Source: Candidatus Hydrogenedentota bacterium (GTDB lineage Bacteria > Hydrogenedentota > Hydrogenedentia > Hydrogenedentales > SLHB01). From it: a stretch of DNA of 64,000 bases. The DNA is taken from positions 9,936 to 73,935 of the forward strand of contig JBKHFO010000001.1 of NCBI GenBank assembly GCA_046540175.1, given 5' to 3'. The notes below the pieces were generated by a model. The model was not told the origin of the DNA. It did not search any database and saw only the letters and a list, made by a program, of their open reading frames with translations. Below are positions 1,961-53,141 of the stretch, in pieces. Position numbers and translations under genes: made by a program. The first letter of the stretch is position 1. Each line of letters starts with the position of its first letter.

Positions 1961-3520
1961 ATGAAGAATCAAACTCGAACGCTTTCTTTCGCGCGCACGA
2001 TTGTGATCGCCGCCTCATTGGCCGCGGCGATCTGCCTGATCGTCGCCGCTGCTCACCCCGTACCCGCGGCCTCTGCCGCCGCTTCGGGAGACGGGGAGTG
2101 GCCTCAATACGAGGAGAACCCTTTCCGTATCCCGATAACCATTCCACTGTGGTCCGGTGACGAGTATCGCAACGACAAGGGCGGCCTTGTCATTCATGAT
2201 GTCACAGGCGATGGGCTCAAGGATTTCGTGATCAGCTTCAAGGAAGGCCCTCAGCAAGACGACAGCGGGGACGCGCACATCGGCGCCTACAGCCATCACG
2301 GGGAAGAAATCTGGGCCGAACAGGTGGACATGCGGCTGAACATGAAGGCCGAATACGCAGGGTTGCCCGGTCACTTTGGTCCCGGCTTCTATATCGCCGA
2401 CATCGATGGGGACGAGCGGCCGGAATTACTGCACATTGATACATCGGATCGGCTGGTCATCCGTGACGCGCGCACAGGCGCCGTGAAGAAGAGAGGCGCG
2501 GTGGAGCTGCCGGAAGGCGGAGGCCGATGGGGAGGCATGGTGCAGGTTTGCAACTTCCGGGGCATGGGTATGGTGGACGCGCTGCTCCAGGCTGAGTACG
2601 AGGGCGGCGACAGCCGGAACGCGCCGGATCCCCATAACCCGTTCCACCGCCTCACCGCCGTGAAGCTGGATTCTTACGAGGATGGCGAATTCGAGGTGTT
2701 GTGGCACAACACCGATTACATTGGCGGCCGCCACTACGGCGCCCGGGCGATGGATCTTACGGGGAACGGCCGCGACGATGTGGCCGGGGCGGTGATCGTG
2801 AATCACGAAGGGGAGATCGCGCATGAATGGCGATTGCCGGAAGAGGGGTTCGCGCACTATGACAGCATAAAGGTCCAAAATGCCCGTCCGGACCTGCCCG
2901 GCCTGGAGGTCTTCGTGATTACGGAAGGCGGCCAAGAGTGGGTCGCCATGGTGAACCACGACGCGGGTGTCGTATACCACAGCAGCTACGAAAATGACGA
3001 GCCTCAAAAAGGGGCGGTGGGGCAATTCGATCCAGAGCGGCCCAGACTCGAAAGCTGGTGGGCGAACAAGGAGAGCAATTACCGGCATCCGTTTGCCTTT
3101 GATTCCGAAGGCGAATTGATCGCGGCGTACGACTTCAAGAGCAAGTTCCCCCCCGAAGGCCAGGAACGAGACTGGTCAACTGGGTCCACGACATTCATTG
3201 ATTGGAAAGGAACCGAAACGCAACAAGCCTTCATGCGGGGGAGATACGAGCACCCGTCGTTGGGTGGAGTCGCCAATCCCGTCGTCTTTGAGCCCATGAG
3301 CGGGGAAATCATCGAGTGGTTTGATACGCCCGTTCGCCAATGCTTCCCCGCGGATGTCTCGGGAGACTATCGCGAGGAAATCGTCGGTATCGACGGAGAG
3401 ACCAACGAACTCGTGATTTGGTGGAACCCGGAGCCCAATGAGCGGGAGCGGCCGCGTTATTGGAATCATCAATGGTACCGTGTGGCCATGCAGATCGCGG
3501 ACGCGTATTCCGTGAAGTGA
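1961..3520 (+). CDS. Secreted FG-GAP/beta-propeller repeat protein (Ca-binding DxDxDG-like loops; possibly polysaccharide-lyase PL11-like)
   Basis: Signal peptide MKNQTRTLSFARTIVIAASLAAAICLIVAAA. Repeated loops DVTGDGLKDF, IADIDGDERPEL, MDLTGNGRDDVAG and ADVSGDYREEIVGIDGE. GCGAGGTG Shine-Dalgarno sits 6 nt upstream. Confidence 0.7.
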   Translation: MKNQTRTLSFARTIVIAASLAAAICLIVAAAHPVPAASAAASGDGEWPQYEENPFRIPITIPLWSGDEYRNDKGGLVIHDVTGDGLKDFVISFKEGPQQDDSGDAHIGAYSHHGEEIWAEQVDMRLNMKAEYAGLPGHFGPGFYIADIDGDERPELLHIDTSDRLVIRDARTGAVKKRGAVELPEGGGRWGGMVQVCNFRGMGMVDALLQAEYEGGDSRNAPDPHNPFHRLTAVKLDSYEDGEFEVLWHNTDYIGGRHYGARAMDLTGNGRDDVAGAVIVNHEGEIAHEWRLPEEGFAHYDSIKVQNARPDLPGLEVFVITEGGQEWVAMVNHDAGVVYHSSYENDEPQKGAVGQFDPERPRLESWWANKESNYRHPFAFDSEGELIAAYDFKSKFPPEGQERDWSTGSTTFIDWKGTETQQAFMRGRYEHPSLGGVANPVVFEPMSGEIIEWFDTPVRQCFPADVSGDYREEIVGIDGETNELVIWWNPEPNERERPRYWNHQWYRVAMQIADAYSVK

Positions 3521-3659: not shown

Positions 3660-6233
3660 CTATTCGTAGGTGAAGACGGCCGTCGCGGCGCAATCGGCGT
3701 TCGCGCGGAGGCGGATCCAGTGGGCCGCGAAGCCCTCGGGGAACTCGTGGGTTACGGTTTCGCCCGCGGGCACGGTGAGTTCCGCGTAGGTGAAATACGT
3801 CTCGGGCGTATGAATCGCGCCGAAGATGTCGATCTCAAGCGCGAACGTCACGGCGCTGTCCGCGTCATGGCTTAGCTCGACCCGCTTGCGGTCGTAGCCG
3901 GTCATGAGGTACGGATCGCTCGCCTCGCCGGTTTCCACGGCCGTGCCGCGCCAGGGTCCGCCCACGCCGCGCGGCTTGCCCAGCTTCCAGAGGTCATCAA
4001 TATCGCCAACCCACAGCCCGGTCCGGCCGTCATCCGACGGGATAAGGTGGGGATGTTCGGGATCCGCACCGGCGGCCACTCCTGTAACCACCATCATGCC
4101 GAGCCACGAGCAGAAGTCGATGATCCGCTTGTTGTGTGTCGCCACGGGTTTCAAGGCGCGCACGCCGCCGGAGCTGTTGCGCGGCATCATGTAGAACGTG
4201 CCCGCGGCGTTGAGCAAGGCGCGCTCCGTCACTACTTCGCGCACGCGCCGGGGATCGCCGCCGGGCCAGGCCGCGCCGTAGGCTTCATGTCCTTTAGGCA
4301 GGCGGAACCGCGTGGCGCCTTGGAACAGGATAACCGAGGCTTCATCGATTTCGATATCCAGATCGCCGTCGGGCGCTTGCCCCATACCGCCCGCTTCGAT
4401 GGCGGCGTTTTGCCGCAGGTACTCGGCGGCGTCCGTGTCGTCGGGCTTGTGGCGTAGCACGAGGTCCTCGCCAATCTCGTAGTACCCCACGCCGCTGACT
4501 TCGCCGTCCGCGTCCACATGGCGCGCCCACAAGTGAAGCGTTTCCAGGTCCCCGCCGCGCGGCCGGATGATGCCCCGGGTGTAGGCGTCATTGGTCTCCA
4601 CGCTGGCCAGGGGCGCGAACATCGCCTCGTCCACGACGCTGCCCTTGGAGGGGCCGAAGTGGAAATGGGCCGTGGCCTGGCTCACGTCCCGGTCCGCGCG
4701 CACACGCATCCATTCCCCCGGCGCATCAGGCGGGATGACGTGGTGCGCGTAGCCCTCGGCGGGAACTTCGACCTCGGCATGGTCTTCCCAGTCGTTTTTG
4801 CCGGTGCGATCGATCTCGAGATGAAAGGTCACGGGTTCGCCGGAGTCGTGGCCCAGATGCAGCACCCGTTGCTCGTAGCCCGCGATGAAGAAGGGGACCG
4901 ACGGCGCGCCGCCCTCGACCGGATCCTCCATCCAAACGCCGCCCCATCCCACGGGCGCGCCCATATCGTGCAGGGCGTCCCACGTGGAGAACCAGAGGTT
5001 GGAGTGGCCTTGGCCCACAAGCGGATTGTCGAACGGCGAGGCGTCGTTGCAGGCGAACACCAGCTCGCCGTTCCAATTCTCCACGTCGCTGATGATCTTC
5101 AAGTAGGCGCTGATCGGGCGCAAGCCGGATCGATCGCCCGGCGTAAGGCGTATGGGAAAGTCGAACAAGCCGCCGTTCTTTATCATGAGCAGACGGGGCG
5201 GTTCGCCGTTCGCCGCTGGGACCGCCTCGCGGATGCGCGGCCATTCCGTGTGCCAACCATGATGGCCGTCGTACGAGAAGTCGGCCTTCGGCATACGGAA
5301 CTCCCGCCACTCTTCGTTCTCCATGACCATTAGAATGAGCGAGCGCTTATCCCAGCCCGTGGCCCATACCGGGGCCTCGTCATCGGGCGCCCCGTATATG
5401 CCCCCCGGTCCCGTGACCTCGGTGAACTGGCGCCGTTTGATGAGCCGCCACTCGTCTTCGCCATCCCAATCGGCCAGGATGCCCGCATCTTCATCGCTCT
5501 GATGCTCGGGATCAATCTGGTACTCGAAGGGCTGGAACGGATTCACCGTGCCAGAGGCGTGCTCGCCGTTGTTGCCAATGACGAGGCGGCCCTGGCCGGT
5601 GTAGGCGCCCTTGGCGTGCCAGCCCGGAACGGGCCGGGCGTAGAGAAGGTTCACCTCCAGGGTGTGCACGTCCACTTCGTACAGCAGCCCCTCCATATCA
5701 AAGTGGTAAACCTTGTTTCCGGGATCGTGCAGATGGCGGGCCGTTCCCGTGAGCCGGCCAAAGAGTTTATCCTCTTCCGGCGCGTCGGGCGCATCGCCCA
5801 TCGGAATTACCCGTATGTTGCGGTCCTCGTCCACGAAATAGGGGCCGATGAGGAGCTGGTTCGATTCCCGGTGAATCATGCGGTTGGCGGGCGTGCCGCC
5901 GACGCTATCCGGGAAATGCTCCCGGTTTAGGTCCTCGTTAATGATCCACAGCTTGTCCGAGCTGCCGCCCGGCGAATGCTGGTGATAGGTAATGACCCAC
6001 AGGCGGTCTTGCCATTTCACAACCGCGCCCACCCCGCACTCCCCCCCGCCGTCGCGGTTGAACACGGTGAGATGCGGATACCGCCCGCTGACCCGGAAAT
6101 GCCCTGGATTACCCGCCTGCGCCTGGACGGCGGCGCCCTCCAGGTTCTCCATAAACCCCAAGCTAGCGCCTGCGGCGGCCGTGGCGGCCAGAAACTGACG
6201 GCGCGTCAAACTACCTGCTGATTTCTTGGTCAT
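3660..6233 (-). CDS. Large Tat-secreted hypothetical protein (857 aa) with a C-terminal tandem duplicated domain
   Basis: MTKKSAGSLTRRQFLAATAAAGASLG twin-arginine signal. Two related C-terminal segments: ...SGEPVTFHLEIDRTGKND...WMRVRADRDVSQATAHFHF and ...DADSAVTFALEIDIFGAIHT...WIRLRANADCAATAVFTYE. No family motif recognised. Confidence 0.75.
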   Translation of the reverse strand: MTKKSAGSLTRRQFLAATAAAGASLGFMENLEGAAVQAQAGNPGHFRVSGRYPHLTVFNRDGGGECGVGAVVKWQDRLWVITYHQHSPGGSSDKLWIINEDLNREHFPDSVGGTPANRMIHRESNQLLIGPYFVDEDRNIRVIPMGDAPDAPEEDKLFGRLTGTARHLHDPGNKVYHFDMEGLLYEVDVHTLEVNLLYARPVPGWHAKGAYTGQGRLVIGNNGEHASGTVNPFQPFEYQIDPEHQSDEDAGILADWDGEDEWRLIKRRQFTEVTGPGGIYGAPDDEAPVWATGWDKRSLILMVMENEEWREFRMPKADFSYDGHHGWHTEWPRIREAVPAANGEPPRLLMIKNGGLFDFPIRLTPGDRSGLRPISAYLKIISDVENWNGELVFACNDASPFDNPLVGQGHSNLWFSTWDALHDMGAPVGWGGVWMEDPVEGGAPSVPFFIAGYEQRVLHLGHDSGEPVTFHLEIDRTGKNDWEDHAEVEVPAEGYAHHVIPPDAPGEWMRVRADRDVSQATAHFHFGPSKGSVVDEAMFAPLASVETNDAYTRGIIRPRGGDLETLHLWARHVDADGEVSGVGYYEIGEDLVLRHKPDDTDAAEYLRQNAAIEAGGMGQAPDGDLDIEIDEASVILFQGATRFRLPKGHEAYGAAWPGGDPRRVREVVTERALLNAAGTFYMMPRNSSGGVRALKPVATHNKRIIDFCSWLGMMVVTGVAAGADPEHPHLIPSDDGRTGLWVGDIDDLWKLGKPRGVGGPWRGTAVETGEASDPYLMTGYDRKRVELSHDADSAVTFALEIDIFGAIHTPETYFTYAELTVPAGETVTHEFPEGFAAHWIRLRANADCAATAVFTYE

Positions 6234-43221: not shown

Positions 43222-43264
43222 GGCCGGAAAACTAGCCGAGCGACTGTTGAGCGTTTCTTCGACC

Positions 43265-43300
43265 GCGCCGGAAAGGCAGATGCTTTTCCGGCGCGGTTTT
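43265..43300 (+). terminator. Rho-independent terminator after clpX
   Basis: GCGCCGGAAA-GGCAGATGC-TTTCCGGCGC stem followed by GGTTTT. Confidence 0.55.
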
Positions 43301-43360
43301 CACAAACCCAATGTATCCCGCCCGCTTCCCCGCATCGCTTTTTACTGATGGGTTGAATAG

Positions 43361-43586
43361 ACAGGATTTACATGAGTAACAAGATTATGAAGCGTTTTAA
43401 GACTTCTTGTTCAGTATAGCCAAGACTCAAAAACAGAGTGTTTCATATTCATTGTTAGGTGTTTACTGGACATGGATGTGATTGTGTGCCGAAAAGTAAT
43501 GGAACACTTTGTATCCCATTTGTTTTGGGGTGGCCTAGGCGCCATTTAGCTACCGTAAAATCATCTTGTTAATCATGTAAATCCTG
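43361..43586. repeat. AT-rich element about 225 bp long bounded by 25-bp inverted repeats, immediately upstream of lon
   Basis: ACAGGATTTACATGAGTAACAAGAT (43361-43385) and ATCTTGTTAATCATGTAAATCCTGT (43562-43586) match in 24 of 25 positions. The interior is about 35-40% GC against about 65% for the genome. Confidence 0.5.
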
Positions 43587-43598
43587 TTCATAAATACC

Positions 43599-46019
43599 GT
43601 GACGCGTCTTACGGAGACTATCGCGTTGGCAAGAAAGAAAAAGCAACATCCCCATCCCGAACTGGAAGCCCTGCCTCTGTTGCCGCTTAAGGACATGGTG
43701 ATCTTCCCGCGCATGGTGGTTCCCCTCATCGTGGGCCGTCCGCGCAGCATCGAAGCGGTAGAAGAAAGCCTGAGTTCGGAGCGTCCCCTGTTTTTGTGCC
43801 GGCAGCTGGAGGCCGAGACGCCGGATCCCGGGGCTGAGGAACTCAGCGCCTGCGGCGTTACCGCGGGGATTCTGCAAACGCACCGGATGCCCGACGGCGC
43901 GGTGAAGGTCGTGGTCGAAGGATTGGGCCGGGCGGCGTTGCATCAGGTTGAGAAGCTTCAGGGGCTTTCCATGGCCTATGTGCATGTCGAGGACACGCCG
44001 GCTGTGCCTGCCGACGACAAACACGTACGGGCTCAGGTCCAGCTCGCCTTGGAAAACCTAATGGAATACGCGCGGGTTACGCAACGCGTCGCGCCAGAAG
44101 TCGTGGCTTCGCTTCAGAATCTGGATGATCCCCGCGATATTGCCGACATGCTTCCCGCGCATCTTCCGCTCAACCCGCGTGAACGGCAGGCCCTGTTGGA
44201 TATCGCGGAGCCCGGTGAGCGCCTTGAGCAGGTGTCTTCTTATCTTATGCGCGAACTCGAGCTGCAAGAGATTGAGCAGAAAGTGCGGGATCGGGTTCGC
44301 GAACAAATGGAGCGCAGTCAGCGAGACCATTACTTGCATGAACAACTGCGGGCCATTCAACAGGAGCTAGGACAAGGCGACGAGAGTAGCGAGTTTGCCG
44401 AACTGCATAATCTTATTGTGGAAGCCGGTATGCCCTCAGACGTCGAAGCCAAGGCCTTGCGCGAACTTAACCGGTACGAGCGGATGCCTTCCATGAGTCC
44501 CGAAAGCACGCTTACCCGGAACTATTTGGAATGGCTTACCGAAGTGCCTTGGAAGAAACGAACCAAGGACAGCATTGATCTCGAACGGGCGCAACGCGTT
44601 CTGGACGAAGACCACTACGGTTTGGAAAAGGTGAAAGAGCGTATCCTTGAATTCCTCGCGGTGCGCAAACTCAGCAAGAGCAAACGGGGTCCCATCCTGT
44701 GCTTGGTGGGACCGCCAGGCGTGGGCAAAACCTCGCTGGGCCAGTCCGTCGCCCGGACCATGAACCGCCGTTTTGTCCGGGTGTCGTTGGGCGGAGTCCG
44801 GGACGAAGCGGAGATTCGGGGGCATCGCCGGACGTATGTGGGCGCCTTGCCGGGCCGGATCGTTCAGAGCATGAAACGGGTTGGCGTGAAGAACCCGGTG
44901 TTCATGTTGGATGAAATCGACAAGCTGACGGCCGATTTCCGGGGCGATCCTTCCTCGGCGTTGCTGGAAGTGTTGGATCCGGAACAGAACCAGAGCTTCA
45001 GCGACCATTACCTTGAGGTCGATTTCGATTTGCACGAAGTCTTCTTCATCACAACGGCCAACGACGAGTTCAATATCCCGCCCGCTTTGCATGACCGCCT
45101 TGAAGTAGTGCGTCTGCCCGGGTACAGCAGCCACGAAAAAGAGCGCATAGCGCAGTTCTTTCTTGTGCCGCGGCAACTCAAGGAAATGGGCCTTAAAGCG
45201 GACCAGCTCCAAATGACGGGCGAGGCGTTGAAGGTGCTCATTAACCGGTATACCCGCGAGGCAGGCGTACGAGAACTCGACCGCCGCATCGCCCAAGTGT
45301 GCCGGAAGGTGGCGCAAGAGGTGGTCGGCGAAGCCAAGGCGAAGGGCATTACCCACGCCAAGGCCATGCGCAATAGCCCCGGCATGACGGCGGAGCGTAT
45401 CGTGAGCCTGTTGGGGCCGGAGGAATACACCGAGCAGCGGACCGATCCCGAACCGCGGCCGGGCGTTGCGGTCGGCTTGGCGTGGACCGCTGCCGGCGGC
45501 GACATCCTCCACCTGGAAACGGGGGTGATGGAAGGCAAGGGGAAGTTGACGGTCACGGGCCATCTCGGCGACGTCATGAAGGAATCAGCGGAAGCCGCGT
45601 ACAGCTATCTGCGTACCCGGCGGGAGACGCTGGAGCTGTCCCCGAACTTTCATGCCGAAACCGATTTGCACGTGCATGTGCCCGAAGGCGCCATACCCAA
45701 GGATGGGCCTAGCGCGGGCGTCCCACTAGCTGTCTCCATGCTGTCGGCCCTGCGCCGCCGGCCTGTCCGCAAGGGCTTGGCCATGACCGGGGAAATCACG
45801 TTGCGCGGCCGGGTCTTGCCCGTGGGAGGAGTCAAGGAGAAGGTGTTGGCGGCTCACCGCGCGGGCATCAAGACAGTCATGTTGCCCTTGGAAAATGAGA
45901 AAGACCTCCGAGAGATTCCGGCCGAAGTAAAGGAAGAACTGGAGTTCCTCTTGGCCGATGACATGGCTGAGGTGCTGGCTGAAGCCTTTCCGGAGGCCGG
46001 CGAGGTCGAGGCGTCATGA
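43599..46019 (+). CDS. lon: ATP-dependent Lon protease
   Basis: [14 protein letters not shown]-domain, GPPGVGKTS, and PKDGPSAG with catalytic Ser. Alternative TTG start about 27 nt downstream, with GGAGA upstream. Confidence 0.95.
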
Positions 46020-46615
46020 AGATCCGGTCATGCGGGTTTGTGAAAAGTGTGTTGAACTTGAGCGATTGTCCACCGGAAGGGCGGCCGGAATTCGCCTTCG
46101 CCGGGCGCTCCAACGTGGGCAAATCCTCGTTGTTGAATACGCTGCTGAACAGGCGGGGGCTCGCCAAAACCAGCAAGACGCCCGGAAAGACCCGGACCCT
46201 CAATTTCTTCGATGTAAACGGGGAACTGTATCTCGTCGATTTGCCCGGCTACGGTTATGCCAAGGCCCCCAAGGCGCTCCAGGCCAACTGGGGCAAGGCG
46301 ATCACTACCTATCTGCGTGAACGGAAGTCCCTGCGGCTCGTGGTCCATCTCTTGGATGCCCGCCACGAACCTACCCAGCGCGATCACGAGCTGCTTGACA
46401 TGCTCGACGCGTTCGCCCGCCCCGTCGTGCTCGTGGCCACGAAAGTGGACAAGCTTAAACAGAAAGACCGGGCCACCCTGGAGAACCGCTTGCGCAAGAA
46501 TCTTGCTCTGGATGACTCCGCCCTCATCATTCCCTTTTCTTGCATGAGCGGCGAGGGCAAGGGCCCCCTTTGGGAAGTGCTCGAAAGCATGACGGCGGAG
46601 CCGCCGCCGCCGTAA
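46016..46615 (+). CDS. engB: Ribosome biogenesis GTP-binding protein YihA/EngB
   Basis: [12 protein letters not shown] (G1), DLPGYG (G3), TKVDK (G4). Start overlaps the lon stop (ATGA). Confidence 0.9.
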
Positions 46616-46715
46616 ACGTCATTCGAACGACGGTGACGCACCCCCATCATACAGCTCGCCCTGGAGCCCGTTAGCCGCGGACTCCAGGGCGAGTTCAGGA
46701 TGTATGTGCGAGCGC

Positions 46716-48209
46716 TTATTGCTCGGGGATGCTCAGACTCAGCACGGCAGTCTGTTGCCCGCCGCGGAGAATACGGACAAGCGTCGACGAGCCCGGCTGG
46801 GCGTGCTCACTTATCAGTTGGTCGTAATCGCCGGAGTTGTTGACCGGCTGCCGGGCGATTTCCAGGATGATATCGCCTCTCCGGATGCCCGCGTCATAAG
46901 CGGGGCTGTCGGGATCGACGCTGCTTACGACCACGCCCTCCTCCAGCTCAAACTCTGGCGCAAGGCGTTCGGCAAGCTCCGGCGGGATGTCTTCCACCTG
47001 AAGGCCTACGTGGTCCTCTTCGGGCGAGGCCTCGGCGACTTCATCGGGTCTCTCATAGACTTCAAGCTCCACGTCGACCTCAATGAGTTCCTCGTCGCGC
47101 CAGACCTCGAGGGTCACCGTTTCATCGGGCGGCAGGGCCGAGATGGTGCGAACCAAGTCGGTCGCGTCTTGAATCGATTCCCCATCGACACTGCGGATGA
47201 CGTCGTAGGTTTGAAGACCCGCGCGAGCCGCTGGCGTGTCTTCGCGCACGCGTTCCACAAAGGCTCCACGTTCGTCGGGCAAGTCCAAACCGGACGCCAG
47301 GTCGCCGGCATCGGTGATCTCGACCCCAAGATAGCCGCGTGTGACGAATCCTTCCTCGATCAGTTCAGGGATCACGTTGCGGGCTAGATTGATGGGAATG
47401 GCGAAGCCTATGTTCTCCGCGCCGAAGACAATGGCGGTATTGATGCCGATGACCTCGCCGTGGATATTCACAAGGGGGCCTCCGCTATTGCCCAAGTTGA
47501 TGGCCGCGTCGGTCTGGATGAAGTTTTGAAAGCGCAAGTCTGGGTCGGGCAGCATCAATTCGTCGCGGCCCAACGCGCTTATGTGGCCGAAGGAAACCGA
47601 CCCTTCCAGGCCTTGCGGGCTTCCCACGGCAACCGCGAACTGTCCCACCTCAAGGGTTTCGGAGTCGCCAAGCGTGACCGGCGACAGTTCTTCCTCCGGT
47701 GCGTCGATCTTGATCACGGCCACATCCGTGTCCGGGTCGCCGCCCACCACCGTGGCGTCGTACTCGTTTCCGTTGTTCAAGCGCACGGTGATGCTTTCGG
47801 CGTTGCGGATCACATGGTTATTGGTGATGATATGGCCTTCTTCATCGTAGATGAAGCCGGAGCCCGTGGCGGGCACCCGGGGGGGTTGGGGTTCCTGTTG
47901 TGGACCAGGCCCCTGTGGACCAGGCCCCATTTCATCCCGGGGAACGCCGAAGAACCGGAACAGGTCTTCGAACATCTCCATGTCCGGCATACCATCCGGC
48001 ATGCCATCGGGCATGCCGCCGCCAGGTGCTTCAAGTTCGCGGTCGGCCTCGATGTTCACTACACTGGGCCGTACCTCTTGGCCCAACTGGACAAAGGCGC
48101 TCTCGAATTCTTCCAGCAATTCAGAGTCCAACGCGTGCGCTGGAGTGATGCCTGGGGCCAACAGGGCCGCCGCGCAAAAAACTCCGATACCAATCGACCA
48201 CTTTCTCAT
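46716..48209 (-). CDS. htrA: HtrA/DegP-family periplasmic serine protease with two PDZ domains
   Basis: Signal MRKWSIGIGVFCAAALLAPG. HVI (His), D, GNSGGPLVN (Ser) triad. Two PDZ-like segments. AAAGGAG sits 7 nt upstream. Confidence 0.9.
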   Translation of the reverse strand: MRKWSIGIGVFCAAALLAPGITPAHALDSELLEEFESAFVQLGQEVRPSVVNIEADRELEAPGGGMPDGMPDGMPDMEMFEDLFRFFGVPRDEMGPGPQGPGPQQEPQPPRVPATGSGFIYDEEGHIITNNHVIRNAESITVRLNNGNEYDATVVGGDPDTDVAVIKIDAPEEELSPVTLGDSETLEVGQFAVAVGSPQGLEGSVSFGHISALGRDELMLPDPDLRFQNFIQTDAAINLGNSGGPLVNIHGEVIGINTAIVFGAENIGFAIPINLARNVIPELIEEGFVTRGYLGVEITDAGDLASGLDLPDERGAFVERVREDTPAARAGLQTYDVIRSVDGESIQDATDLVRTISALPPDETVTLEVWRDEELIEVDVELEVYERPDEVAEASPEEDHVGLQVEDIPPELAERLAPEFELEEGVVVSSVDPDSPAYDAGIRRGDIILEIARQPVNNSGDYDQLISEHAQPGSSTLVRILRGGQQTAVLSLSIPEQ

Positions 48210-48560
48210 AGTGTTGCTCCTTTCGTTTCCACCGCCGATGGGCGGTGCATGGCTTGGTGGAGGCGCATCCATACGCGCTCCATTTCCTCGCTTGATGGTG
48301 CCTTGCGTCCTTCGCAAAACACATGGAACGAATCTAGCACCTGGCGCGCATCCATTACGATCCGCGCCATGGCGATATCGCACCTCAACCCTGTCAAGGC
48401 TTGGGATGCGTGATACCTTAGCCCCGCTCGATCCCCGCTTTCGATATCAATGAATGTGCGGGACCGCGACTTGTTGTTAGCAAATTGGATGCGAGTTCGC
48501 ATGGGGACCCTGAGTTGCCGGAGGGCGAACAACCGCCGCCTCACCTGTTCGATGTAGGGC
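48206..48560 (-). pseudogene. Diverged duplicate of the glnD 3' end (C-terminal ACT domain fragment)
   Basis: KPYIEQVRRRLFALRQLRVPMRTRIQFANNKSRSRTFIDIESGDRAGLRYH...HRPSAVETKGATL is about 75% identical to the last roughly 118 aa of the full glnD (49637-49990). No N-terminal domains. Its stop overlaps the htrA ATG (ATGA). Confidence 0.6.
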
Positions 48561-48644
48561 TTCGCTTCCGCGCTGTGAACAAACCCTGCCCACAGGATTC
48601 GTCTGTGATTTCGCATCCGCACGTCAAAAACCTCTTGCTGTGCT

Positions 48645-49637
48645 CTATTGGCTTTCCAGCAACCCCACCATAGCCTCACCCATGCCTTCTCCGATGAGAT
48701 AGAAGGTTTCCCAGTTGCGGAGCCAGTGGAAGTCTTGCGCAGAAGGAGATTCCTCTTCGCTTCTCTGAAAATCGCGAGTCTCAACGCCGGCGACATTGCC
48801 TTTGAATTCAGGGTATTCTTCGGGGTCGGAAAGCGCTAACTGGGCGTCCATCAGTTTCTCGACCCTCTCCTTATAGGGGGCGTCGCCGGGAATCGTCCAG
48901 CCGCCCATCCCTGTATTCGCAATGACGAAGGGAAGATCCGGGACGCCGAGATCCGCGCGGATATCCTTGACGAAGTTCTCCATGTTCTTTTCGTACGCAT
49001 CCACCGCGGCCTGATCGATGCGGTCGTTCCAGCCTTGGTGCCAGCCGAACCCCACGATCTCGTATCCCTCACCGTCGTAGTCTGGATAGTACTGCTTCAA
49101 GTCACCGGTAATCTCTTCGACCTGCCTCAGAATCTCCGCGTAGTGGAATCCCTTATCACCGTCTTCTTCGGGTTCGGGATATGCTTCGGAGCTTGGGGAC
49201 AGGAAGTCATGATAAAGTGATCTACCGCCCCACGCCGCCTTGATGATCAGCACGGGGTCTTCATAATAGTCTCCGACAGTGAACCCGAAACCATATTCGG
49301 GGCCGATGTGATCTTCGGAGGCTCCGTAACCGGTCGTAAGCCAGCCCTTTTGGTCCATGTTGTACACGATCCAGACATCGTCGCGGACAACCGGTTCGTC
49401 ATTCGCGTCCAGCAGATGGCCATACGCGCCGGGTTTCTCTTCGAGATACCACTCCATCGTTCCAGGACCGTTCTCGAGCTGGCCGAAACCAACCATGTTC
49501 GACTGCCCCGAGAGGATGAATATCTTCAACGCGCCATCGGCGGAACGGCCCTCTTGCTCTTCCGAGGCAGAACCGGCAGGCATGCATACCATCAACACCG
49601 ACGCTGCAACGACCATCATCCTGCATACTGTATTCAT
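48645..49637 (-). CDS. Secreted SGNH/DUF303 sialate O-acetylesterase-like carbohydrate esterase
   Basis: Signal peptide. FILSGQSNMVGFG motif. Lower GC (about 56%) than the surroundings. ATG overlaps the glnD stop (TAATG). Confidence 0.8.
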   Translation of the reverse strand: MNTVCRMMVVAASVLMVCMPAGSASEEQEGRSADGALKIFILSGQSNMVGFGQLENGPGTMEWYLEEKPGAYGHLLDANDEPVVRDDVWIVYNMDQKGWLTTGYGASEDHIGPEYGFGFTVGDYYEDPVLIIKAAWGGRSLYHDFLSPSSEAYPEPEEDGDKGFHYAEILRQVEEITGDLKQYYPDYDGEGYEIVGFGWHQGWNDRIDQAAVDAYEKNMENFVKDIRADLGVPDLPFVIANTGMGGWTIPGDAPYKERVEKLMDAQLALSDPEEYPEFKGNVAGVETRDFQRSEEESPSAQDFHWLRNWETFYLIGEGMGEAMVGLLESQ

Positions 49638-52348
49638 TATTGCAGACTCCCTTTCGTTGTTTCCACCGCCGACGGGCGGTGAATGGCGTGGTGGAGTCGC
49701 GTCCGCATGCGCTCCATTTCTTCACTTGATGTCACTTTGCGTCCTTCGCAAGTCACATAGAACGAATCCCGGACCCGCCGCGCGTCCGTCACGATCCGGG
49801 CTGTGGCTATATCGCATCCCAACCCCGTCAAGGTGTGGGCTACGTCATACAGTAGCCCGGTTCGATCCCCGCTTTCGATATCAATGACTGTGTGGGTCCG
49901 CGAACTGTAATTGTCGAACTCGATTTGGGTGCGTACGGGGATGCGGGGTTGCAGCAGGGCGAACAACCGCCGGCGCGCCTGTTCAACATAGGGCTTCACA
50001 TCCGCGCCTTCAACCAGCACAGCCCGCAAGACCCGTTCAAGGCCGGCCAACTCGGTCTGGGTTAACCGCCGTCCTCCGGAGGGCTCTCCCACGGTGAAGC
50101 AGTCAATCACGTATCCGTCGGGCCGGGTAAAAAGGGCGGCGCTGTTAACATCCATGAGCTGTGAAGTGAAACTGCCCGCCAACTTGGCGAAAAGGCCGAT
50201 TTGGTCGCGCGTGCTTATGGTGATCTCGCTCATGACCGTATCATCTATTGGAGCCGTATGGAGGACGAAACCCGCTTCTTTGGCGCGCGCAATCAGCTCA
50301 AGATGGTGCGCCATCTGTTCGCTTGAAAAGGCTGCATAGTACCGTTCTCCCATGTCCCGGATGTGGGCTTCAACCTCGCTGCGAAGATCCTCGCGCGCGC
50401 GTTCCTGGACCATCTGCGCCTTAGGGGAGTTCCAGAACGCTTCGTCCGGCGATACCGTGCGGCCAAGCAAGTGCTTCTCGGCCTTCAGATACAGCTTCAT
50501 GAGCAAGGCGCCTTTCCAGTCGTTCCAGACATTGGGGCCAACGGCGGACATGTCCGCGTAAGAAAGCAGGAACAAGGACCGGAGGCGCTGTTCAGTCCGC
50601 ATCGTTTCCGCAAAGGACCGGACAATGTCCTCGTCATCAATGTCCCGGTACTGGCTGATGAAGGTCATTTGCATGTGATGCTCGACGAGAAAGGCGATCC
50701 GTTCCACATCGTCGGCGGAAAGCCCCATACGGTAGGCTATGCGCCGGGCAAGGCGGGTGCTTTCTTGAACATGAACCTCTCCCTTGGCCTTGCCCAAATC
50801 GTGAAATAGAATGGCCATCACGAGAATATGGGGATCCGACAAATGCTCAAGGGCAGTGCGTAAGCAACGCGAGACGGTGTCGTCGCGTTCGTGAAGGGCC
50901 GAAAGCGCCTCCAAAGCCCGCAGCGTATGTTCATCCACGGGATAAGCATGAAAATCCTCGTAGCAAATTATGCCCTCAATCGCCCCAAATTCTGGAATAT
51001 ACCGGCCCAGCAGGCCCGTTTGCGCCATTTGCCGTAGCGTGCTTCCCGCTGTGGTTGGATGATTGCATAGGGCGGTGAAAAGGCGCCGCACGACATCGCT
51101 CGAACGGAATGTATCGCCCACGAGCCCCAGGTTGCGCCTGATGCGGCGTTCCGTTTCGTAGCTCAGGGGGACTCCTTGGCTGGCGCTCTTCCAGAAGACC
51201 TCCATGAGCCGCGCCGGCGCTTGGGCGAACCAATGGGGATCGTGAAGTCCCGCATGAAGTTCCCCGCCGCTGATCGTTACCTCATCGGCGGAACCGGCGT
51301 GCGTCTCCGCGGTAGGCGATAGGGAGGGCTGACAGTTCCACAATCCCGCGGCGCGCCGAAGCAGGTTGCGCATCGTTCTCGCGGCTGCGTAGTAGTCCTC
51401 CATGAGGCGCGCGATATTAGGGCGCTCCCCCGCCGTATATTCAAAGGCTTGCGCTAGCCGGTGCTGATTCGAGAAAGTTAACCGATCCTCGTCTTTGCCG
51501 GTTACGAAATGCAACTCGTTGCGCAGGCGCAGTAGGAAATCAAGCGCCTCGACGACTTCGAGGTGGGTTTCGGGGGAGAGAAGACCTGTGCTGGCGACCT
51601 CGTCGAGCGTCTTTGTACCGTAGGCTGTCATGGGAAGCCACAGGGCGCTGTGATAGTCGCGGAGCCCTCCGGCGTTCTGCTTGATATCGGGGGAAAGCGC
51701 GTACAGATCGCCATATTTTGCGGGCAATTCCCCGAAACGTTCGCGCACAATTTCTTCGATGTAGCGATGGGCGACGCCCTTTACCTGTAAATCTCGCACG
51801 CACAGTTTCAGCCGTGCGAATACTGTTGTGTCGCCCGCCAAGAGCCGGGCCTGAGAAAAGCTGGTGAACACTTCCTTGTCGTCATTCGCCAACTCTTGGG
51901 TTTCCGCGATGGTGCGGATGGCGTATCCCACATGAAAGCCCAGGTCCCACAAAAACGCGACCAGATAGCTGTTGAGGGTCTCGATAGCGGGGCTCAGCTT
52001 GCCATCGTGGATCAAGGCCACATCGAGGTCCGAGTAGGGACTCAGTTCGGCGCGGCCATACCCGCCGACCGCACACAAAGCCACACGGCTTTCAACTTGT
52101 GCTGTATCATGAGCGGCCGCCAGCCCGAACCGGTAGACGCCCTGAAGCACCGTGTCCGCCATGTCCGACAAGGCCCGCACGACATTGCCGCCCGACTCGC
52201 CGGCTTCATGCCGACTGCGAATCGCCTTGCGGCGGGCTTCCGTATAGGCGCGAGCCGCCTCCAGGCACTCGTTCCGGGACATCGCACGGAACGCCTGGGG
52301 ATCGCTGCTGGCCAGCGTCACGAGTTCTTCGAAGGCGGGCATGGTCAT
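49637..52348 (-). CDS. glnD: [Protein-PII] uridylyltransferase/uridylyl-removing enzyme
   Basis: Nucleotidyltransferase GGYGRAELSPYSDLDV, HD domain HDLGK, two C-terminal ACT domains. Start trimmed to MTMPAFEEL. Confidence 0.9.
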   Translation of the reverse strand: MTMPAFEELVTLASSDPQAFRAMSRNECLEAARAYTEARRKAIRSRHEAGESGGNVVRALSDMADTVLQGVYRFGLAAAHDTAQVESRVALCAVGGYGRAELSPYSDLDVALIHDGKLSPAIETLNSYLVAFLWDLGFHVGYAIRTIAETQELANDDKEVFTSFSQARLLAGDTTVFARLKLCVRDLQVKGVAHRYIEEIVRERFGELPAKYGDLYALSPDIKQNAGGLRDYHSALWLPMTAYGTKTLDEVASTGLLSPETHLEVVEALDFLLRLRNELHFVTGKDEDRLTFSNQHRLAQAFEYTAGERPNIARLMEDYYAAARTMRNLLRRAAGLWNCQPSLSPTAETHAGSADEVTISGGELHAGLHDPHWFAQAPARLMEVFWKSASQGVPLSYETERRIRRNLGLVGDTFRSSDVVRRLFTALCNHPTTAGSTLRQMAQTGLLGRYIPEFGAIEGIICYEDFHAYPVDEHTLRALEALSALHERDDTVSRCLRTALEHLSDPHILVMAILFHDLGKAKGEVHVQESTRLARRIAYRMGLSADDVERIAFLVEHHMQMTFISQYRDIDDEDIVRSFAETMRTEQRLRSLFLLSYADMSAVGPNVWNDWKGALLMKLYLKAEKHLLGRTVSPDEAFWNSPKAQMVQERAREDLRSEVEAHIRDMGERYYAAFSSEQMAHHLELIARAKEAGFVLHTAPIDDTVMSEITISTRDQIGLFAKLAGSFTSQLMDVNSAALFTRPDGYVIDCFTVGEPSGGRRLTQTELAGLERVLRAVLVEGADVKPYVEQARRRLFALLQPRIPVRTQIEFDNYSSRTHTVIDIESGDRTGLLYDVAHTLTGLGCDIATARIVTDARRVRDSFYVTCEGRKVTSSEEMERMRTRLHHAIHRPSAVETTKGSLQ

Positions 52349-53141
52349 TGCGCGGTTTCCCCCTCGGGGGTTGTTGGGGCGGTCTCGTATGGGGGGCCGA
52401 CAAGCGTGAAGGCGTATTGGGGCGCCCACCCACGACCGCCTTCAACGGATTCAATGCGAATCCACTCGTCCTCTTGGCGATCTACTGTAACACGATCGCC
52501 TTCGTGGAGTTCAAACCGCACCTCGCTTACCTCGCCAATCCCGTACCGCACAGGAACGCTTTCCACGCTGGCAACCGCAACCCGTGCGGGCTGGTGGCGC
52601 ACCCATCCCATGGCGGCAAACAGGGCGGCAAAAAGTAAGCTTAACGCGGCTACTACCTTGATCCAACGCGTAGACCGCCAAATGCAAGCTGCCATCGCGC
52701 CCCAGAACAGGCCCCAAAACCCAACGGCTAACCATACAGTGGTTGCTGGAGCAAGCCGGGATTGAGCGGTTAGCAAGGCCTGCCGCCATGCGGGCTTTTC
52801 CGGGGGGACCAGGCCTTGCTCGGTTTGCGCGAGGGCGTGTCGAAGGCTGCGGCGGGCCTGCGCGAAATGGGGATTGTGCTGCAAAGCTCGTTCGTAGTTT
52901 GCTATGGCGGGACCAAGGCGTCCTTGTTGATGGAAGGCATGGGCCAAGTTGTAGAAGACGGGGGCCTCCCGGACGCCCTCGGCTACCAACAGTTGAAACT
53001 GTTGAGCCGCGGCTGCGTAGTCTTCGTCTTCATAGGCTTCCACGCCGCGGGCGAAGGTCACGTCATGGGCAGTTTCCTGCGCCGAGCCGGCGGCGGCAGT
53101 AAAGGCGAATGACAAGAATATAAGAAAAAGCATTCTGCTCA
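52345..53141 (-). CDS. batE: BatE-like protein (TPR + SH3b), Bat/MoxR operon
   Basis: Signal MSRMLFLIFLSFAFTAAAG. TPR helices, a TM segment, and a C-terminal SH3-like GDRVTVDRQEDEWIRIE...GWAPQYAF. Confidence 0.7.

Follow-up and report, generated by a model that had tools for sequence, protein, structure and literature searches.

A clade-native esterase gene inserted between glnD and htrA in Candidatus Hydrogenedentota, with duplication of the glnD 3' end

We analysed a 64,000-nucleotide (nt) stretch of DNA (hereafter the window) from GenBank contig JBKHFO010000001.1 (positions 9,936 to 73,935), which a scan with its GlnD protein placed in Candidatus Hydrogenedentota. On its minus strand, the gene of a sialate O-acetylesterase-like protein stands between glnD, encoding the [protein-PII] uridylyltransferase, and htrA, encoding a probable Do/DegP-family serine protease, and the 3' end of glnD is present a second time between the esterase gene and htrA. 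Ancestrally, htrA came immediately after glnD, and the esterase gene is a lineage-specific insertion. It is likely that the clade's own esterase gene was copied into the glnD-htrA junction in a single microhomology-mediated event that duplicated the glnD 3' end. The description that fits best is a duplicative insertion, mediated by microhomology, in which a gene native to the clade entered a conserved pair of overlapping genes and left a relic of glnD behind.

Results

The 3' end of glnD flanks the esterase gene on both sides

A repeat search of the window returned a direct repeat on the minus strand, 300 nt long with 78% identity and 1434-nt spacing, and BLASTN aligned positions 48225–48573 with 49659–50007 at 277 identities in 350 (79%; E = 7e-68). 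An earlier note on this DNA, made by reading the sequence, had described the last ~350 bp of glnD as occurring on both sides of an esterase gene. The repeat is real and the alignment highly significant; its length had been underestimated. In-register similarity extends beyond the aligned part, on the upstream side as far as 48601 and 50035 (69% identity over 45 nt) and on the downstream side as far as the stop codons, so that the duplicated unit is ~396 nt (48206–48601 versus 49640–50035), not 350. The copy attached to glnD (H1) and the copy adjoining htrA (H2, the relic) are 77–79% identical in nucleotides and 65% identical in protein sequence, below the ~75% amino acid (aa) identity first estimated.

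The present order is glnD, TAATG, esterase, relic of the second ACT region of glnD, ATGA, htrA (Table 1). As the earlier note had read correctly, the glnD stop overlaps the esterase start in TAATG and the stop of the fragment overlaps the htrA start in ATGA. The glnD gene is complete: its product scored 620.9 bits against TIGR01693 (cutoff 519.4), spanning positions 1–849 of the 850 in the model, and Pfam identified GlnD_UR_UTase, HD, and ACT_ACR9_3rd domains. The nucleotidyltransferase, the HD domain, the two C-terminal ACT domains, and a score over the curated cutoff thus place it in the GlnD family.

Table 1. Features of the glnD-esterase-htrA locus (window coordinates)
Feature	Position	Strand	Basis
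glnD, [protein-PII] uridylyltransferase, 903 aa, full length, functional	49637..52348	-	TIGR01693, Pfam, dN/dS
Repeat copy H1: glnD 3' end (second ACT domain), part of glnD, under purifying selection	49640..50035	-	
Microhomology GCGGTGGAAAC at junction 1, common to glnD tail and esterase leader	49659..49669	-	
Last glnD codons (..KGSLQ and stop), from the esterase 5' leader including its Shine-Dalgarno sequence; chimeric GlnD C-terminus	49638..49656	-	
SASA/SGNH-family carbohydrate esterase ("sialate O-acetylesterase-like"), 330 aa, inserted gene, functional	48645..49637	-	PF03629, dN/dS
Short 3' flank that came with the esterase; holds the Shine-Dalgarno-like AAGAGG	48631..48644	-	
Junction 2 filler; source not detectable, or strongly diverged glnD sequence	48602..48630	-	
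Repeat copy H2: relic of glnD 3' end, degenerate ACT domain	48206..48601	-	
htrA, 497 aa, probable Do/DegP-family serine protease; ancestrally the gene next after glnD	46716..48209	-	

The esterase gene interrupts an ancestral glnD-htrA pair

Relatives were found by scanning species-representative genomes with GlnD, and look-ups of the exact proteins added the loci L169, L170, and L171. In 21 related loci, including L001 and L002 (GlnD 83–85% identical), htrA directly follows glnD. In eight of the nine junctions that were read, the glnD stop and the htrA start overlap as ATGA, with an AAAGGAG-type Shine-Dalgarno (SD) sequence inside the last glnD codons. Besides the window, the order glnD-esterase-fragment-htrA was found only in L003, whose GlnD is 97% identical to that of the window, and in L169, L170, and L171. 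The carriers make up two close lineages, A (the window and L169) and B (L003, L170, and L171); because five independent assemblies carry the arrangement, an assembly artefact is ruled out. The start of glnD agrees with a 903-aa gene call in L169, and the ratio of nonsynonymous to synonymous substitution rates (dN/dS, or omega) over the whole gene was 0.08 between the window and L003.

The two copies of the glnD 3' end differ in what they retain. The copy adjoining htrA is ancestral in its length (369 nt, counted from the conserved KPY motif), in its tail (AVETKGA..), and in its SD sequence and ATGA junction; the tail of the glnD-attached copy is altered and reads AVETTKGSLQ before the stop. 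The earlier note had proposed insertion into an ancestral glnD-htrA junction with partial duplication of the target. Both parts are borne out, by the 21 related loci outside lineages A and B in which glnD adjoins htrA, and by the doubling of the glnD 3' end alongside the lineage-specific insertion.

In a distant Hydrogenedentota genome, the glnD-htrA junction was interrupted independently (L010, 2675–3339), in that case without duplication of the glnD 3' end. The insert holds a 196-aa open reading frame (ORF; 2712–3302) with a weak match to an MntA-like nucleotidyltransferase (NF047752, 1.4e-9, under the cutoff). The junction may be a recurrent insertion site.

The C-terminus of GlnD derives from the esterase leader

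The 22 nt ending in the esterase ATG, CGAAAGGGAGTCTGCAATAATG, encode the end of GlnD in the window. They match the esterase's own leader, CGAAAGGAAGCCTGCAATGATG, in L081 and L082, two loci in which the gene context is unrelated, and do not match the ancestral glnD tail, GAAAGGAGCAGCAACATGA. The local alignment score of the leader was 23, compared with at most 13 in 75 other esterase loci. The glnD tail is derived from the esterase leader, which makes the GlnD C-terminus chimeric.

Just before CGAAAGGGAGTCTGCAATAATG, the esterase leader and the glnD tail both read GCGGTGGAA(A/C)C (9 nt), and they also have GAAAGG in common, the two together marking the crossover; in its long form, the shared sequence at this junction (junction 1) is GCGGTGGAA..CGAAAGGAAGCCTGCAAT. 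Where the glnD tail has GCGGTGGAAAC, the L081 and L082 leader has GCGGTGGAAC. Exact copies of GCGGTGGAAAC occur at just two places in the window, 49659–49669 and 48225–48235 (0.09 expected by chance), and in a predicted 7-bp hairpin the microhomology forms the 3' arm.

Two hairpins are predicted just upstream of the htrA SD sequence at 48228–48283, and likewise at 49662–49716: GGAGCGC..GCGCCTCC and CACCGCC-CATC-GGCGGTG. Both occur in both repeat copies and also in L001 and L002, and the 3' arm of the second is where the insertion junction lies. In RNA folding at the htrA and esterase starts, their z-scores were only modest and not significant (-1.5 to -2.4).

At the other end of the insert (junction 2), the 17 nt from the esterase stop codon read TAGAGCACAGCAAGAGG in the window and TAGGGACCAGGGAAAGG in L081, and the likeness stops beyond them. 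This junction comprises ~14 nt of L081-like sequence after the esterase stop, ~29 nt of filler, and then glnD homology from 48601 (= 50035). No second copy of the filler was found in the window, and its in-register identity to glnD is only ~44% by hand count on the alignment. Possible starts for the ORF of the relic lie within it (GTG at 48622, ATG at 48616), as does a 3-nt indel that separates lineages A and B.

The duplicated fragment decays, with its reading frame open

Against TIGR01693, the relic matched model positions 756–848 only, with 31.4 bits (cutoff 519.4), as expected of a 3' fragment and not of a glnD gene. Its Pfam ACT score was 24.7 bits, compared with 45.9 bits for H1 and a cutoff of 27; with the score under threshold and the core motifs altered, the relic falls outside the ACT-domain families PF24931 (ACT_ACR9_3rd) and PF01842. 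Among the motifs conserved in the full-length GlnD copies, GLLYD is changed to GLRYH and ARIVTDARRVRDSFYV (ARIMTDARRVRDAFY in more distant relatives) to ARIVMDARQVLDSFHV, and the replacements differ by lineage (TFIDIESGDRAGLRYH versus TVSGSESGDRTGLRYH). Between the window and L003, dN/dS of the relic was 1.5, with terminal-branch ratios of nonsynonymous to synonymous differences (pN/pS) of 1.6 and 1.2; the corresponding values for H1 were 0.08–0.19 (omega) and 0.09–0.19 (branch pN/pS). Substitutions at codon positions 1, 2, and 3 numbered 14, 19, and 9 in the relic and 2, 2, and 15 in H1. By these measures the relic is not a conserved protein and is decaying at the neutral substitution rate. 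Of the marks of a pseudogene, it shows loss of purifying selection and truncation of the 5' 85% of the gene, but no stop or frameshift in the remaining 138 codons.

This open frame runs from GTG at 48622, 22 nt past the esterase stop, to TGA at 48206. Selection for translational coupling into htrA, if ribosomes have to pass along the frame as far as the ATGA to begin htrA, could have kept it open irrespective of the amino acid sequence, an explanation that would add to the insertion history given above and that we put forward tentatively. The frame is intact in five of five instances and in both lineages. The relic keeps the ancestral SD sequence (AAAGGAG) and the ATGA overlap with htrA, both conserved across the relatives examined, and in both lineages the SD-like AAGAGG lies 5–8 nt upstream of the GTG. 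Comparison of lineages A and B shows 46 substitutions over 393 nt of the relic, without a single indel; true intergenic DNA of this genome pair has 157 substitutions and 13 indels in 744 nt, or 42 substitutions and 6 indels in 367 nt when a poorly aligned region upstream of lon is left out. The probability of finding no indel in the relic is 0.004–0.013; its substitution density (0.117 per nt) equals that of the intergenic DNA (0.114 per nt). However, indels may arise less readily in formerly coding DNA than in true intergenic DNA, and the independent lineages number only two. The absence of stop codons is not significant by itself (simulation P = 0.09–0.15), and within the relic the 90 nt adjoining htrA do not stand out by significantly higher conservation (Fisher p = 0.46). 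The gene htrA also has a strong SD sequence of its own, predicted to be unpaired, and may not need coupling. The further proposal that the relic has been co-opted as a "spacer ORF", its sequence drifting while its frame is selected for htrA expression via ATGA, is one we consider rather unlikely; if true, it was the 400-bp duplication that allowed a translationally coupled pair to tolerate a new gene between its members.

The esterase is native to the clade

The inserted gene encodes an esterase of the SGNH/DUF303 type, as the earlier note had recognised: it matched PF03629 (SASA) with 76.3 bits (cutoff 24.8), which places it among the SASA/SGNH carbohydrate esterases as a putative sialate O-acetylesterase. 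The translation holds LSGQSNMVGFG, with the GQSN nucleophile motif (GQSNM), and its N-terminus, read by eye, is hydrophobic and signal-peptide-like. The protein is identical to MFP4190473.1 and only distantly related to solved structures (2apj, 6.6e-8; 1zmb). Omega between lineages A and B was 0.23, indicating purifying selection.

The nearest homologues are those of L081 and L082, at 79–80% aa identity, followed by the next best at 72%. In L081, the esterase gene lies on a 24-kb contig, convergent to hisC, in the neighbourhood tpiA-secG-murA-hisD-hisC. The MurA protein of this contig is 96% identical to that of SKRY01, the metagenome-assembled genome (MAG) carrying L001, and therefore L081 belongs to Hydrogenedentota; its identity to the MurA of JAWOFY01, the MAG carrying L003, is 92%. 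Synonymous divergence (dS) of the esterase gene between the window and L081 or L082 was 0.65–0.74, and that of glnD, htrA, engB, lon, murA, hisD, and hisC between the same lineages was 0.48–0.94. When metagenomes were scanned with the esterase, 80 loci were recovered, all at most 77% identical over the matched part and none with the insertion; neither glnD nor htrA was found near the esterase homologues in these 80 loci or in L081 and L082. The esterase is native to the Hydrogenedentota clade and not foreign.

The earlier note had taken the gene for a foreign cassette, on the strength of ~56% GC set in surroundings of ~65%. The first value holds (55.9%) and the second does not, the window being at 61.0%, glnD at 59.6%, and htrA at 60.7%. 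Total GC of the esterase gene (0.559) is the lowest of 42 ORFs in the window (mean 0.613, standard deviation 0.025), and the family is widespread in Phycisphaerae and Verrucomicrobia at 65–75% identity, both of which would suit acquisition from an unrelated organism. Yet the low total GC is due to codon positions 1 and 2, i.e. to amino acid composition; at third positions (GC3) the esterase gene has 0.676, close to glnD (0.692) and htrA (0.694) and 0.9 standard deviations below the window mean (0.723, standard deviation 0.052), and compositional foreignness was rejected. Moreover, the closest relatives lie within the host clade, dS is unsaturated and equal to the genome-wide value, and a leader shared at the nucleotide level was found only in the Hydrogenedentota relatives L081 and L082. 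Horizontal acquisition from an unrelated organism is accordingly very improbable.

The old locus of the esterase gene was traced in lineage A on contig L172, which is 99.4% identical in nucleotides to L167, from the MAG of L169. At 3880–4396, L172 carries hisC, then a gene with an LprI domain, then an esterase-like 3' remnant at the contig end. The remnant ends ..HWLRNWQTFYLIG, followed by an unrelated tail (also read as QGSHWLRNWQTFYLIG, with the tail frameshifted or replaced); only its last 16 codons are visible, and the L167 contig ends at hisC. Where the new copy is present, the original locus of the esterase gene thus appears to have undergone rearrangement.

In the MAG carrying L003, hisD is called at just 88 aa, and the gene after it, on the opposite strand, is of the AMP-binding type (L163, 5509–6230). 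A Logan contig with an identical MurA (L164) has a full hisD, and the L163 case is either a real rearrangement or a chimeric contig.

A single illegitimate event can account for the arrangement

From the junctions we infer a single-event mechanism of the microhomology or template-switch kind. The insertion would have taken place in the common ancestor of lineages A and B, into a glnD-htrA pair overlapping in ATGA. The inserted piece would have comprised ~20–35 nt of 5' leader with its SD sequence, the coding sequence, and ~14 nt of 3' flank, and would have entered in one illegitimate event, by end joining or a replication template switch, without mobile-element machinery. At the upstream end, joining would have occurred at the likeness between the esterase leader (GCGGTGGAAC..CGAAAGGAAG) and the glnD tail (GCGGTGGAAAC-GAAAGGAG). 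The downstream end would have rejoined glnD ~396 nt further upstream, via the ~29 nt of filler, so that the last 396 nt of glnD were duplicated, and the relic would still supply the original ribosome-binding context of htrA.

The divergence of the two copies bears on the timing. Their dS (0.52) falls between that of the A/B split (0.18) and that of the split from L001 and L002 (0.65–0.83), and their stem branches are similar (pS 0.13 and 0.16, from parsimony ancestors). In a neighbour-joining tree, the fragments fell inside the clade of the window, L003, L001, and L002 (100% bootstrap), as sister to the glnD copies of the window and L003 (39–59% bootstrap). The diverged donor copy that the earlier note had offered as an alternative is unnecessary, given this nesting and a divergence that neutral decay explains.

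Several points weigh against this account. The weak support for the sister position leaves room for a donor from a sister species in the same genus-level clade, and the source may have been either the cell's own hisC-linked copy or DNA of a close relative. The mechanism is reconstructed from present-day junctions only, and junction 2 is blurred by ~0.25 substitutions per site, its position lying somewhere in 48601–48625. The likeness of the L081 and L082 leader to the glnD tail could in principle mean that those esterases once sat behind glnD; this is less parsimonious, because L001, of the L081 lineage, has an untouched junction.

A Campbell-type single crossover would instead have circular DNA of a diverged donor, carrying the glnD 3' end and the esterase gene, integrate by homologous recombination in the 3' end of glnD, so that the flanking direct repeats would have differed from the outset. 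Such a crossover yields the homology-insert-homology topology seen here, with a direct repeat of a chromosomal segment flanking the insert, and at synonymous sites the two copies show much the same distance to L001 and L002 (dS 0.52–0.56). However, no circular glnD-bearing donor is in evidence, and adjacency of glnD and the esterase gene is absent from ~100 loci outside lineages A and B. The esterase's own leader accounts for the joint between the two genes, a homologous crossover would not typically leave filler such as that at junction 2, the junctions show microhomology and filler in place of a clean exchange, and the divergence of the copies fits neutral decay in situ. We regard integration of this type as highly improbable.

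Transposon insertion was rejected. No transposase, integrase, or recombinase was present among the neighbouring genes listed for L169, the repeat search found no inverted repeats flanking the insert, and a duplication of ~396 nt far exceeds the target-site duplication of transposition. The locus thus lacks the marks of a mobile element or genomic island.

That the fragment has become a new, functional stand-alone ACT-domain protein is likewise very hard to credit: its ORF is open and free of indels, with a possible SD sequence and start, and a 136-aa ACT protein is gene-called there in L170, but its dN/dS of 1.2–1.6, substitutions spread evenly over codon positions, core motifs replaced differently in the two lineages, Pfam score under the cutoff, and lack of a gene call in L169 all speak against a selected protein.

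Neighbouring genes and expression signals

The HtrA protein has Trypsin_2 (123 bits) and two PDZ domains in Pfam and scored 415.0 bits against TIGR02037 (Do family), slightly under the cutoff of 416.2. The neighbouring genes, from the gene and Pfam list of L169, are TPR, BatD, GlnD, SASA, HtrA, EngB, Lon, and ClpX only. A scan of 46500–52700 predicted no terminator between glnD, the esterase gene, the relic, and htrA, so that the four probably form one transcription unit; co-transcription is deduced from that prediction, and the promoter and terminator counts in the scanned region equal the shuffle expectation. An Rfam scan of 46000–53000 gave no match at E up to 1.

A 16-nt inverted repeat (46655–46693; 94% complementary, 7-nt loop) lies where engB and htrA converge; it could be a hairpin resembling a bidirectional terminator and was not among the calls of the consensus terminator scan. 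Within htrA, the sequence of the N-terminal linker includes two perfect tandem copies of the 15-nt unit TGTGGACCAGGCCCC (47899–47928), encoding a Gly/Pro/Gln-rich stretch, and close to it, at ~48006, a 15-nt indel distinguishes lineages A and B. Omega of htrA was 0.24 between A and B and 0.12–0.13 toward L001 and L002. The intergenic region upstream of lon (43222–43598) is hypervariable between A and B, with 115 mismatches in 377 aligned nt and seven indels of up to 46 nt; the genes flanking it are 93–95% identical between the two lineages.

Discussion

Models of illegitimate, microhomology-mediated insertion include homology-facilitated illegitimate recombination (HFIR) in naturally transformable bacteria and template switching, as in microhomology-mediated break-induced replication (MMBIR) and fork stalling and template switching (FoSTeS). 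HFIR usually involves a longer homologous anchor and often deletes target DNA. The arrangement described here resembles such insertions in that a gene-sized piece without mobility genes was joined at a short patch of similarity (9 + 7 nt), with filler at the other junction and a local duplication of the target. It differs from HFIR in that ~400 bp of target were duplicated and not deleted, and its mechanism is read only from the sequence, in a phylum for which no experimental system is known. HFIR is a subject treated in PMC6382021.

The ancestral glnD-htrA pair, which overlaps in ATGA with the SD sequence inside the upstream gene, resembles translationally coupled overlapping gene pairs (ATGA or TAATG) such as those of the Escherichia coli trp operon, and after the insertion both joints are again overlaps or near-overlaps (TAATG and ATGA). 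Unlike in those pairs, the upstream "gene" of htrA is now a degenerate relic, and coupling here is putative. The relic in turn resembles gene-fragment pseudogenes: it is truncated, without the nucleotidyltransferase and HD domains, has neutral dN/dS, and has lost conserved residues. In contrast to them, it has taken up ~0.2 substitutions per site with no frameshift, stop, or indel, and its end still offers the next gene a start context that looks functional.

The arrangement is not a mobile element, a foreign island, or a new system, but a well-resolved, ordinary rearrangement of a known kind. It answers no open question, and the one thing about it that is not routine is that the relic evolves neutrally with its frame preserved. 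For annotation, the "ACT-domain protein" of 136–138 aa called in some assemblies is this relic, and the last codons of GlnD in the window come from the leader of another gene.

The locus provides a natural example of a gene recruited to an operon without a mobile element, whose junctions, source locus, and ancestral state are all legible in the sequences. Duplication of the glnD 3' end left both glnD and the ribosome-binding context of htrA intact, and so illustrates how an operon can grow.

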